Below, piece after piece: positions 37,121 through 40,100 of a DNA stretch of 64,000 nucleotides. Both the position numbers and the translations under genes were made by a program. Origin of the DNA: an uncultured Gammaproteobacteria bacterium (GTDB taxonomy: Bacteria > Patescibacteriota > Microgenomatia > Daviesbacterales > UBA10151); assembly GCA_964362195.1 (NCBI GenBank), contig CAYICZ010000002.1, positions 63 through 64,062 of the forward strand, given 5' to 3'. Each line of letters begins with the position of its first letter. The stretch's first letter is position 1. The notes under the pieces were generated by a model. It was given only the letters and a program-made list of their open reading frames with translations, ran no database searches and had not been told where the DNA came from.

Positions 37121-40100
37121 TTATATATCTAAAATGGCCTGCTTTGCATGGGTTTGGATGAAGCGCTTGCGGGGTGGTACCTCATCCCCCATTAACATGG
37201 TAAAAACTTCATCTGCTCCTGTAGCATCTTCCACTGTAACTTGTTTTAACACCCTGTTTTCCGGATTCATAGTTGTTTCCCAAAGCTGGTCCGGATTCAT
37301 CTCCCCCAAACCTTTATACCGGGAAATAATTACACTGGTATTACCGCCTAAAGTTTTAACTATCTCGTCCCTCTCTTGATCTGAATAAGCATAATGAATA
37401 TCTTTGCCTTTTTGGATTTTAAATAAAGGAGGTTGGGCAATATACATATAACCTCTGTTTATAATTTCAGGTAAATACCTGAAAAAGAAAGTTAGAAGCA
37501 AGGTTCTGATGTGTTCTCCGTCAACGTCTGCATCTGTCATTAAAATAATCCTATGATATCTAATCTTGTCATATTGAACGCTGTCTCCAATGCCGGTTCC
37601 CAAGGCTATAACCAAAGCTCTAATTTCTTCAAATTCTAAAACTTTATCTAACCTTGCTCTTTCAGTATTTAAGATTTTTCCCCTTAAGGGTAAAATAGCC
37701 TGGAATTTTCTATCCCTTCCTTGCTTTGCACTGTTATGAACAAATACCCCTGAAGCCAGGGCAAAGTTATGGGTATTTGGTACTTCTATGTCATAAACAT
37801 CCATTTTTTCCTTTAACCTGATAATTCTTTTAATTTTATGGTTAAAGTTGTAAACAGCGTCCTCTAATTTTTTATGATCTCCGTCGAAAAATCTTTCACG
37901 AATTGTAGTAAGTTTAATTAAACTTTTATCTTTAGTTTCAAGACGAATATCGTCATAAGCTTTCTCATCAATTACTCCGTTTTGTTCATGTAGAGTCTTT
38001 AATACTTTGAGCGCTTTTTCTAGATAAGTATTATTATATGCTTTCATTCTTTTAATCCTAAACTCTGATGTCCACTGTTTTTTTGTGGCATTGCTTCTCC
38101 ATTTTAGTAAAGTTGTATCGCTCCACTGTTTTCGAGCTATCTCAGATAACATTTGTTTATTTTCCGGATGTTTTTTATAAAAATCTTTTGTTTTAGCAGA
38201 CTGAGTATCTCTATTTTGTTGATCCGCCCAGTATTCTTTTTGGACTTTTGATAGACGTTCTTTACTATCTTTTCGGTAATCAGGAGAAGAATAATAAAAT
38301 TCTAAAAACTTTTTAGCCATATATAATTTATATTCTTTGTTTTCCCATTGTTTCTTTGTCCGATCACTTAACTGTTTTCTCATTTGGGGAGTTGTCATAG
38401 CTTTTCTAATTTTTTCGCGGAACTTAGGGGTTTTATGTATATCTTTAACTTTTTGTATAACATCCGGGCGTAAAATTGTTTTTTGAGCCATAATTGCATG
38501 ATATTTTAAGTGTCCTTCTTTAGTTAAACGGATGATGTTAGATGGGTTATTGTTGCGCTTATTAAAGTCTCTATGATGTCTGTGTGAGCCATCAGTTTTC
38601 TCATAAACCTTGTGATTTAGGTTGTATTCATCTGCCAGCATATGAGTAAAAATCCAACGATTTTCTTTGGAATTAAAAACTAGTTCATAATCTTTAATAG
38701 TTATCCTTTTGCCAATCCTTGAAAATTGACGATAAAGAGGCCTTAGTGAGTCAGAAGTAGTTAAATCCTGGGCCATTTTGTAACTGCCGTCTCTTAACAT
38801 GAATTTATGATCCGGAGTACAGACAATCTCCTCATTATTATCTAAAATTACCTTAATAACCTGAGCGGCCGGTTTTGTTCTTCTCGGGTTTTTAATTTGC
38901 TCTAAACCCACTGAACCATTTTCCGAAATAGTGTAACAATAGTTTATTTTACCTTCACTGTTTTCTTTAACGAGTTCTTTAAAACTAATATTTCTTCCAT
39001 CAGCTAAAGCAATTTGAGTATCTTCTGAAAAACATCCTCCGGCAGAATCTCCTTCCACAATATATAACTCAGATTCTGCTGCATCCCTATTTTGACAATC
39101 TGCCAGTTTTCCAGGTAAAGTCATGCCCTCCAGCGCCCCTTTTCTAATCACTGCATCTTTTGCTGCCCTTGCTGCCGCACGAGCCCTTGCTGCCAGTAGC
39201 ACTTTTTCTAAAATTGCCCTGCCATCTTGCGGATTTTCCTCAAAATACATATCCAAACCCTCTTTAACAACCTGGGAAACAATGGGTCCAGCTTCCGCAT
39301 TTCCCAGTTTTTCTTTGGTTTGAGATTCAAACTGGATTTTATCTGAATCCATTTTGATAGAAATAACAGCAGTTAATCCCTCCCTCATATCCTCACCGGT
39401 TAAGTTTTCGTCTTTTTCTTTTAAGGCTTCGGATTTTCTGGCATAATCATTAATAGCCCGGGTTAGCGCCATTCTAAATCCGGTCAAATGGGTTCCGCCC
39501 TCAGTAGTTGGTACCACATTGGCAAAGCTTTCAACATTTTCATTAAACCCATCGTTATATTGGATTGCGGCCTCAACATCTACCCCATCAATTACTCTGT
39601 GAATTAAAATCGGTTCAGGGTGAATTAAGGCTTTATTTTTATTAAGATGTTTTATCAGTGTTGCTAAACCGGATTGAAAGTAGAAGTGTCGTTGTTCGTT
39701 AGTTCGTTCATCGTAAAGATGGAAAAAGATCCCGGCTACCAGATATGCCACCTGCTTAATTTGTTTTTCCAGTTTTTCAAACTCAGGGACTATGGTAGAA
39801 AAAATTGACTTATCTGCCAGGAAGGTAATTTTAGTACCATTTTTTGAGTTCCATTTAAAGTTTGATTTATACGGAACTTGAGGATCCTTAGGGTTTGGGG
39901 CAACTTTACTTTTAGCTTTACCTCGAGAGTATTCCTGATAAAATTCCTTGCCATCACGTCTGACTTCTGCTCTTAAATAATCTGACAGAGCATTAACAGC
40001 AGATACTCCAACTCCATGTAAACCTGTGGAAACTTTATAACCACCCTCCCCAAATTTTCCCCCGGCATGCAGAGTGGTCATAATAACTTCCAGTGCTGAA

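Follow-up and report, generated by a model that had tools for sequence, protein, structure and literature searches.

A predicted bifunctional intein with an HNH-type endonuclease module in the gyrB gene of a groundwater Candidatus Daviesbacteria

The gene for DNA gyrase subunit B (gyrB) in a 64,000-nucleotide (nt) stretch of contig CAYICZ010000002.1 (assembly GCA_964362195.1; the whole stretch is here called the window) encodes a protein of 1082 amino acids (aa), in which a block of 434 aa splits the Toprim motif. This raises the question of what the block is and how a normal GyrB could arise from such a gene. The original prediction, made from the sequence alone, had explained it as an intein with an HNH endonuclease domain. 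Here, we followed up this locus using homology searches, curated domain models, structure models and comparison with related loci. Taken together, the results make it highly probable that gyrB of this groundwater Candidatus Daviesbacteria (Patescibacteria, candidate phyla radiation, CPR) is interrupted by an intact 434-aa bifunctional class-1 intein with an HNH-type homing endonuclease.

An insertion in the Toprim motif of GyrB

The precursor open reading frame (ORF), consisting of N-extein, intein and C-extein, is located on the minus strand at 37121..40369 (1082 aa plus stop), as delimited by the ORF list, Pfam and NCBIfam. It harbors the Pfam domains HATPase_c, DNA_gyraseB, Toprim, DNA_gyraseB_C and Intein_splicing and matches the NCBIfam gyrase B subfamily model NF004189 with 905 bits. 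The three parts, all on the minus strand, were located by motifs in the translation and by Pfam, in the case of the intein also by NCBIfam. The N-extein (39035..40369; GyrB aa 1-445) contains the ATPase and transducer domains up to EGDSAGG of the Toprim motif, the intein (37733..39034; precursor aa 446-879) extends from Cys1 to Asn434, and the C-extein (37121..37732; aa 880-1082 plus stop) starts at Ser+1 of SAKQGRDR and provides the rest of Toprim and the C-terminal domain. The insert is in frame, with EGDSAGG directly followed by Cys at the N side and VHN directly followed by SAKQGRD at the C side. These junctions, with Cys immediately after EGDSAGG and GVFVHN immediately before SAKQGRDR, had been described in the original prediction, whose insert coordinates and whose sizes for protein, insert and spliced product were reproduced exactly.

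Removal of the insert in silico yields a GyrB of 648 aa. A search with this spliced product returned its own protein (P0121), followed by GyrBs of Candidatus Daviesbacteria with 646 to 652 aa and 88 to 91% identity. Two intein-less GyrBs, P0122 and P0124 (646 to 648 aa), show 91.6% and 91.5% global identity to the spliced product and align without a gap at the junction; in both, the Toprim motif runs uninterrupted across the insertion site. The extein junction that had been proposed is thus borne out by intein-less orthologues. The gyrB equivalog model TIGR01059 (cutoff 882.4) gave a similar picture: the spliced product passes in one stretch with a score of 894.8, whereas the precursor fails with 872.3.

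For comparison at the DNA level, we used the syntenic intein-less locus encoding P0122 (L081), which has the gene order T2SSE - holB - gyrB - murC. Relative to this locus, the gaps in the alignment of the window gene total 1302 nt, which equals the length of the intein; MAFFT split them into 830 and 472 nt around a misaligned 7-nt island. Around the insertion point, the L081 site reads GAATTATATATAGTGGAAGGAGACTCTGCAGGAGGC on one side and TCAGCCAAACAAGGCAGGGACAGAAAATTCCAGGCT on the other. Between this empty site and the spliced window site 60 of 72 nt match, and the encoded peptides are identical. Furthermore, the gene is also present on an 18-kb ENA contig that had been assembled independently from a groundwater sample; across 3649 nt, flanks included, the two copies show 0 differences. 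Since the gene is identical on this separately assembled contig, an assembly chimera is excluded.

The two ends of the insert correspond to the lobes of a HINT splicing domain. The N-terminal lobe (intein aa 1-104; 38723..39034, minus strand), delimited by TIGR01445, the structure model and Foldseek, contains block A with Cys1 and block B with Thr73-x-x-His76. The C-terminal lobe (aa 399-434; 37733..37840, minus strand), delimited by TIGR01443 at aa 412-434 and by the translation, contains block F (VYDIEV..HNF) and block G (GVFVHN). All residues of class-1 splicing are there, namely, Cys1, Thr73 and His76 of block B, Asp415 of block F, His433-Asn434 and Ser+1; the block F and G residues and the His-Asn/Ser junction, on which the original prediction had made the intein assignment depend, are among them. 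Thr73, His76, His433 and Asn434 are invariant in a family alignment of 52 sequences, and Cys directly follows (D/N)SAGG in every listed family member in which a junction search found the N-junction. Curated models also recovered the Hint blocks above their cutoffs: Pfam PF14890 (Intein_splicing) scored 75.4 bits (cutoff 35.8), TIGR01445 (intein N-terminal) 47 bits at aa 1-79 (cutoff 24.5), and TIGR01443 (intein C-terminal) 30.9 bits at aa 412-434 (cutoff 15.6).

An AlphaFold2 model of the whole intein, built on the 52-sequence alignment, reached a mean predicted local distance difference test score (pLDDT) of 87.4, with about 95 in both beta-rich terminal lobes. Foldseek with this model against the PDB gave 39 matches at E ≤ 1e-3, and practically all of these are solved inteins or HINT domains, including Ssp DnaE (1zd7, E = 2e-6), Npu DnaE, Mtu RecA, Ssp DnaB and PI-PfuI. 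In a PDB sequence search with the intein, weak HINT matches only were obtained, and no structure of a GyrB intein was found. Judged from its motifs and predicted fold, the insert is a canonical class-1 intein with a HINT fold.

From the essentiality of gyrB, the conserved residues and homology, we infer that the precursor undergoes protein splicing. After translation, the HINT lobes at aa 1-104 and 399-434 would fold together, and a thioester would form between Cys1 and Gly-1. Attack of Ser+1 on this thioester would lead to a branched intermediate, from which cyclization of Asn434, aided by His433, would release the intein. A final O-to-N shift would restore the native EGDSAGG-SAKQGRD peptide and, with it, a normal GyrB of 648 aa. 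For annotation, this means that gyrB at this locus is to be read as a precursor and the 648-aa spliced product as the mature enzyme; naive filters on length or model score mishandle the precursor, which lies just under the gyrB equivalog cutoff.

Two further conserved cysteines were observed in the N-terminal lobe. Cys32 (window ~38939-38941) is the majority consensus in the family, and Cys72 (~38819-38821), which is conserved at ≥90%, sits directly before Thr73 of block B.

The HNH module and a basic helical array

The first part of the central region (intein aa 105-185; 38480..38722, minus strand) is the predicted catalytic module of the endonuclease and consists of a beta-sheet lead-in and an HNH beta-beta-alpha finger, as delimited by PHROGs, DSSP and BFVD. 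The HNH motif itself (aa 151-179; 38498..38584, minus strand), defined by translation and family conservation, comprises H153, H154, D156, N162, N166, H175 and H179, and the HNH-like string quoted in the original prediction was found at exactly this position. In the 52-sequence alignment, H153, H154, D156, N161, N162, N166, H175 and H179 are conserved at ≥90%. Three PHROGs HNH endonuclease families match intein aa 118-225 (E = 5e-6, 1.5e-4 and 4e-4), and 30 of 70 relatives reach Pfam HNH_3 at E ≤ 0.01. A separate model of aa 100-400 had a pLDDT of 92.7, and in both models (pLDDT 87 to 93) the finger is made up, according to DSSP, of two strands (aa 151-154 and 167-170) and one helix (172-185). 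In a Foldseek search against the predicted viral structures of BFVD, Bacillus phage SP-15 provided the top match, a Hint-domain protein aligned over 305 columns (E = 1.5e-6); with few exceptions, the rest of the top 50 are HNH or homing endonucleases of phages or giant viruses, with probabilities of ≥0.97. PHROGs, topology and BFVD folds thus back the HNH assignment. Also, the proposal that the nuclease is of the HNH rather than the LAGLIDADG type holds, as no LAGLIDADG family was matched in the Pfam scan at E ≤ 1 or among the Pfam hits of the 70 relatives. On the strength of these sequence and model matches, whose scores for this sequence are sub-threshold or moderate, we accept the central part as a putative HNH (His-Me finger, HNH_3/I-HmuI-like) module.

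The module is predicted to act as a homing nuclease. In this case, the excised intein would carry the HNH nuclease at aa ~105-185, with His154 as the probable general base and Asn166 and His175/His179 completing the metal site. The basic helical array that follows would, most likely, read a site of ~20 to 40 bp in intein-less gyrB. The empty allele would then be cut or nicked, and recombinational repair would copy the intein in.

This helical array (intein aa 186-398; 37841..38479, minus strand) was delimited by the model, conservation and composition. The original prediction had described it as Lys/Arg-rich and of low complexity. The former description is correct, with 24.4% Lys plus Arg over the 213 aa. 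The latter is wrong: all 12-aa windows stay at or above 2.2 bits, the value below which SEG is usually triggered, the mean column identity is 58% (n = 26 sequences), and W230, W304, W312 and W321 as well as several Tyr, Phe and Arg residues are invariant. In the model of aa 100-400, about 12 helices follow the HNH finger, with pLDDT values of mostly 84 to 98 in 10-residue blocks. Three similar units of the form [RK]xxLSxxxKxxW occur at aa 219-230, 258-269 and 293-304. In a scan of aa 186-345, 18 of 500 shuffled sequences reached the observed repeat score; a strict tandem repeat is not claimed for this stretch on the basis of so marginal a score.

Known families did not account for the array. 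No Pfam family was found for it among 70 relatives, Foldseek with the central domain gave no PDB fold match, and its profile retrieved nothing from the PDB sequences (best E = 0.41, ORC2, a compositional match). Neither a NUMOD nor a helix-turn-helix family was among the Pfam hits of the 70 family members at E ≤ 0.01, and the single BFVD match named NUMOD4 covers the lead-in of the nuclease only.

HNH and GIY-YIG homing endonucleases are modular in build. Because of the analogy with these enzymes, whose modular build is covered by a review of His-Me finger endonucleases (PMC5714182), the array is probably the putative DNA-recognition part of the endonuclease. It is the only part of the intein that has had no structural or functional description so far, and it is common to the whole family, not specific to the window. 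We tentatively suggest, with slightly more doubt than confidence, that the array with its Trp/Tyr ladder and [RK]xxLSxxxKxxW units represents a kind of DNA-recognition module for HNH homing endonucleases that has not been described before. If this is true, nuclease and reader would form a portable cassette that has colonized several essential genes.

Family, Daviesbacteria alleles and genomic surroundings

With the intein as the query, 444 proteins were matched. This set stems from a word-indexed homology search that returned only proteins of ≤760 aa and missed the 1082-aa protein of the window; all full-length intein-bearing GyrBs of Daviesbacteria are also outside it, so that its best identity of 57% is an underestimate. 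The best identity to any other intein found is 64.5%. The top family matches have E values of 1e-164 to 1e-83 and cover up to 100% of the query. When one genome per species was scanned, at least 575 genomes of bacteria and archaea turned out to hold a relative. Bacterial hosts include Patescibacteria, Cyanobacteria, Nitrospirota, Omnitrophota, Planctomycetes, Elusimicrobia and Geobacter, and archaeal hosts include DPANN, Woesearchaeota, Micrarchaeota, Thermoplasmatota and Methanosarcinales. Every member with readable junctions has the same GyrB site (EGDSAGG/C...HN/S(A/G)K), and intein lengths are mostly 429 to 436 aa. Of the 102 positions conserved at ≥90%, the intein of the window differs from the family at 2, and since this equals the family median, its sequence appears intact and not decayed. 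Overall, we regard the element as an intact, fairly divergent addition to a known and widespread family of GyrB inteins, with site, architecture and chemistry as expected.

The central domain of ~300 aa is conserved across phyla and domains at 50 to 61%, similar to the GyrB N-extein (48 to 62%). Relatives of it were also found in GyrA inteins (P0320, P0336, P0316 and P0334) and in multi-intein T4-like portal proteins (P0298, P0318 and P0322). Five loci with the GyrB-site intein (L041, L068, L071, L075 and L077) have over-long N- or C-exteins of 759 to 1003 aa, which implies further inteins at other GyrB sites.

Among the 120 closest GyrBs, the site is empty in 109 and occupied by a full-length intein of 430 to 434 aa in 9, including the one described here. 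The remaining two carry mini-inteins of 213 aa (P0149, locus L084) and 195 aa (P0188, locus L090) at the same site, which lack the HNH finger and the helical array through deletion but retain both HINT lobes; these two mark tolerated deletion boundaries. The full-length inteins fall into two lineages at one site. The first has seven members, including the intein of the window, and the other six (P0228, P0209, P0240, P0216, P0181 and P0161) share its site, architecture and length (433 to 434 aa). They are its nearest relatives with 60.5 to 64.5% identity (61 to 74% within the group), yet this leaves a divergence of 35 to 40%, while the exteins are 84 to 87% identical. The second lineage, P0220 and P0227, starts with CW.GDT and is 47 to 50% identical to the intein of the window and ≤55% to any intein outside the pair. 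For both lineages, extein identity lies within 84 to 87%. In the two loci that were fetched for this comparison, L084 and L089, holB lies upstream of gyrB.

The composition of the intein is foreign relative to the exteins, with a GC content of 32.3% (25.6% at third codon positions) versus 40.6% (32.8%). Empty, full-length and degenerate alleles together with two lineages form the pattern predicted by a homing cycle of invasion, decay and loss, as in the model of Goddard and Burt (cited in PMC7765530). A literature search found no reports of inteins in the gyrase of Patescibacteria.

To look for a co-conversion tract, the exteins were compared with L081 close to the junction; nucleotide identity there was 0.86 to 0.88, which is no clear excess over the average of 0.82 for the gene. 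The +1 Ser codon of the window (37730-37732) is AGT. Of 80 intein-bearing loci, which come from many phyla, 67 have an AGY codon at this position, as do all five intein-bearing Daviesbacteria alleles, and the six intein-less Daviesbacteria alleles are divided into three with AGY and three with TCN. The AGY codon may be a footprint of co-conversion or a relic of earlier occupancy; with so small a sample, we dropped it as evidence.

In the surroundings of gyrB, an intein-free gyrA (27942-30503, minus strand; 853 aa, with DNA_topoisoIV and GyrA C-terminal repeats) lies at a distance of ~7 kb. On the other side, gyrB-holB is adjoined by a gene for a 564-aa T2SSE protein with an MshEN domain, an ATPase like those of type IV pili and type II secretion systems, which together with further ORFs occupies 41043-44994 on the plus strand; the arrangement of T2SSE and gyrB-holB is also kept in the intein-less locus L081. 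Two ORFs of the plus strand, at 18142-20055 (637 aa) and 50744-52612 (622 aa), had no Pfam match at E ≤ 1e-5, and for a third at 21507-23495 (662 aa) a dockerin type I repeat was the sole Pfam hit. Within the 64-kb window (1-64000), neither tRNA genes (ARAGORN) nor Rfam families at the gathering threshold were detected.

Relation to known systems and alternative explanations

We take the HNH intein reported by Dalgaard et al. (1997) to be the Ssp GyrB intein of Synechocystis PCC 6803. The Ssp intein resides in the same host protein and ends in the identical GVFVHN followed by Ser+1, and its splicing domain is likewise interrupted by a putative endonuclease domain, which is dispensable for splicing in Ssp. 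Accordingly, a mini-intein lacking this domain splices efficiently (PMC3620165), and the S11 split version, with a C-intein of the 6 aa GVFVHN followed by Ser, trans-splices in vitro and on cells (PMC2794532). Our link to Ssp rests on the published peptide of its C-intein and on relatives from cyanobacteria: the cyanobacterial GyrB inteins P0067, P0070, L058 and L077 are 48 to 52% identical to the intein of the window over the aligned length and occupy the same site where both junctions are present; two of them read at 435 aa. In contrast to Ssp, the host here is a CPR bacterium, and the intein shares only ~50% identity with the cyanobacterial branch. At position 4, the intein of the window has Glu, whereas most of the family has Gly. 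In the His-Me finger classification of Jablonska et al. 2017, "Gyrase subunit B intein" forms group 22 (PF13392; PMC5714182), and NCBI names such proteins, including the Daviesbacteria protein P0209, "intein-containing DNA gyrase subunit B".

The predicted nuclease resembles HNH_3 phage endonucleases of the I-HmuI type (His-Me finger group 2; 1u3e) in its HH..N..N..H residues on a beta-beta-alpha finger and in its modular order of nuclease and extended DNA-binding region, the latter being putative here. However, the I-HmuI-type enzymes are free-standing or intron-encoded and not embedded in an intein, and a long helical array as the putative DNA-binding part sets the present protein apart; 1u3e was absent from the PDB hits of Foldseek. 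LAGLIDADG inteins such as PI-SceI, PI-PfuI and mycobacterial GyrA inteins share the splicing chemistry and a HINT domain split by a homing endonuclease, and the HINT parts superpose (1dq3 and 7qss are among the Foldseek hits), but nuclease fold and catalytic motif are different.

Several observations weigh against an intein with a functional HNH homing endonuclease. Of the HNH models that the original prediction had called for, the PHROGs families match, but Pfam HNH_3 at aa 153-175 reaches only 14 bits, below its gathering cutoff of 24.8. The BFVD matches to HNH proteins, the SP-15 Hint-domain protein excepted, have modest E values of 1e-3 to 5e-2, and Foldseek of the central domain against the PDB gave nothing significant (best match, an HNH Cascade subunit with E = 3.0). 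The DNA-recognition role of the helical array is read only from charge, position and conservation. To our knowledge, no GyrB HNH intein has been reported to act as an endonuclease in an experiment. Moreover, identity to the nearest other intein is only 64.5% despite exteins of ~87% identity. Signs of recent homing into this genome are therefore absent, and the nuclease, its conserved residues notwithstanding, could be inactive.

One alternative is a splicing-competent intein whose endonuclease is inactive and which is inherited vertically as a resident, kept only because its imprecise loss would kill the essential gyrB. The gap between the identities of the nearest inteins (61 to 64.5%) and of the exteins suggests long residence without evidence of recent mobility, the HNH_3 score of this sequence is below cutoff, and the mini-inteins of the same clade show that decay of the nuclease occurs. 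Against this, the conserved HNH residues are all intact, deviations from the family consensus do not exceed the median, and the conservation of the central domain is hard to explain without selection on the nuclease somewhere in the lineage; also, as P0149 and P0188 illustrate, a dispensable nuclease gets deleted, not kept. We consider an inactive nuclease unlikely, although it is the alternative to which we give the most room. Far less probable in our view is a domesticated intein that regulates gyrase post-translationally by conditional, e.g., redox- or stress-dependent, splicing. The position within the catalytic Toprim motif should render the unspliced precursor inactive, Cys1 and the conserved Cys72 by block B could in principle form a redox trap, and the insertion position is extremely conserved across domains. 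However, direct evidence for such regulation was not found, the 109 close relatives without an intein argue against a required regulatory role, and the scattered occurrence of the intein, with mini and empty alleles alongside, is in keeping with a selfish element.

A non-splicing insertion, a fused gene call or an assembly chimera, finally, has only the a priori possibility of such errors in metagenome assemblies in its favor and is practically negligible. The independent contig and the exact-length gap relative to L081 effectively refute chimera and non-splicing insertion alike, with the GyrB motif intact after removal of the 1302 nt. Furthermore, the reading frame is uninterrupted, the splicing residues are complete, curated intein models are passed, and hundreds of homologues are inserted at the identical site. 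An intact intein with an HNH-type homing endonuclease is thus the reading that we retain.

The finding leaves the current understanding of GyrB inteins unchanged. In technology, inteins related to that of Ssp GyrB are useful as tools for protein splicing, and the natural mini-inteins P0149 and P0188 show at which points the nuclease can be removed. The set of Daviesbacteria alleles represents a compact natural series in which the homing cycle can be studied in CPR bacteria.

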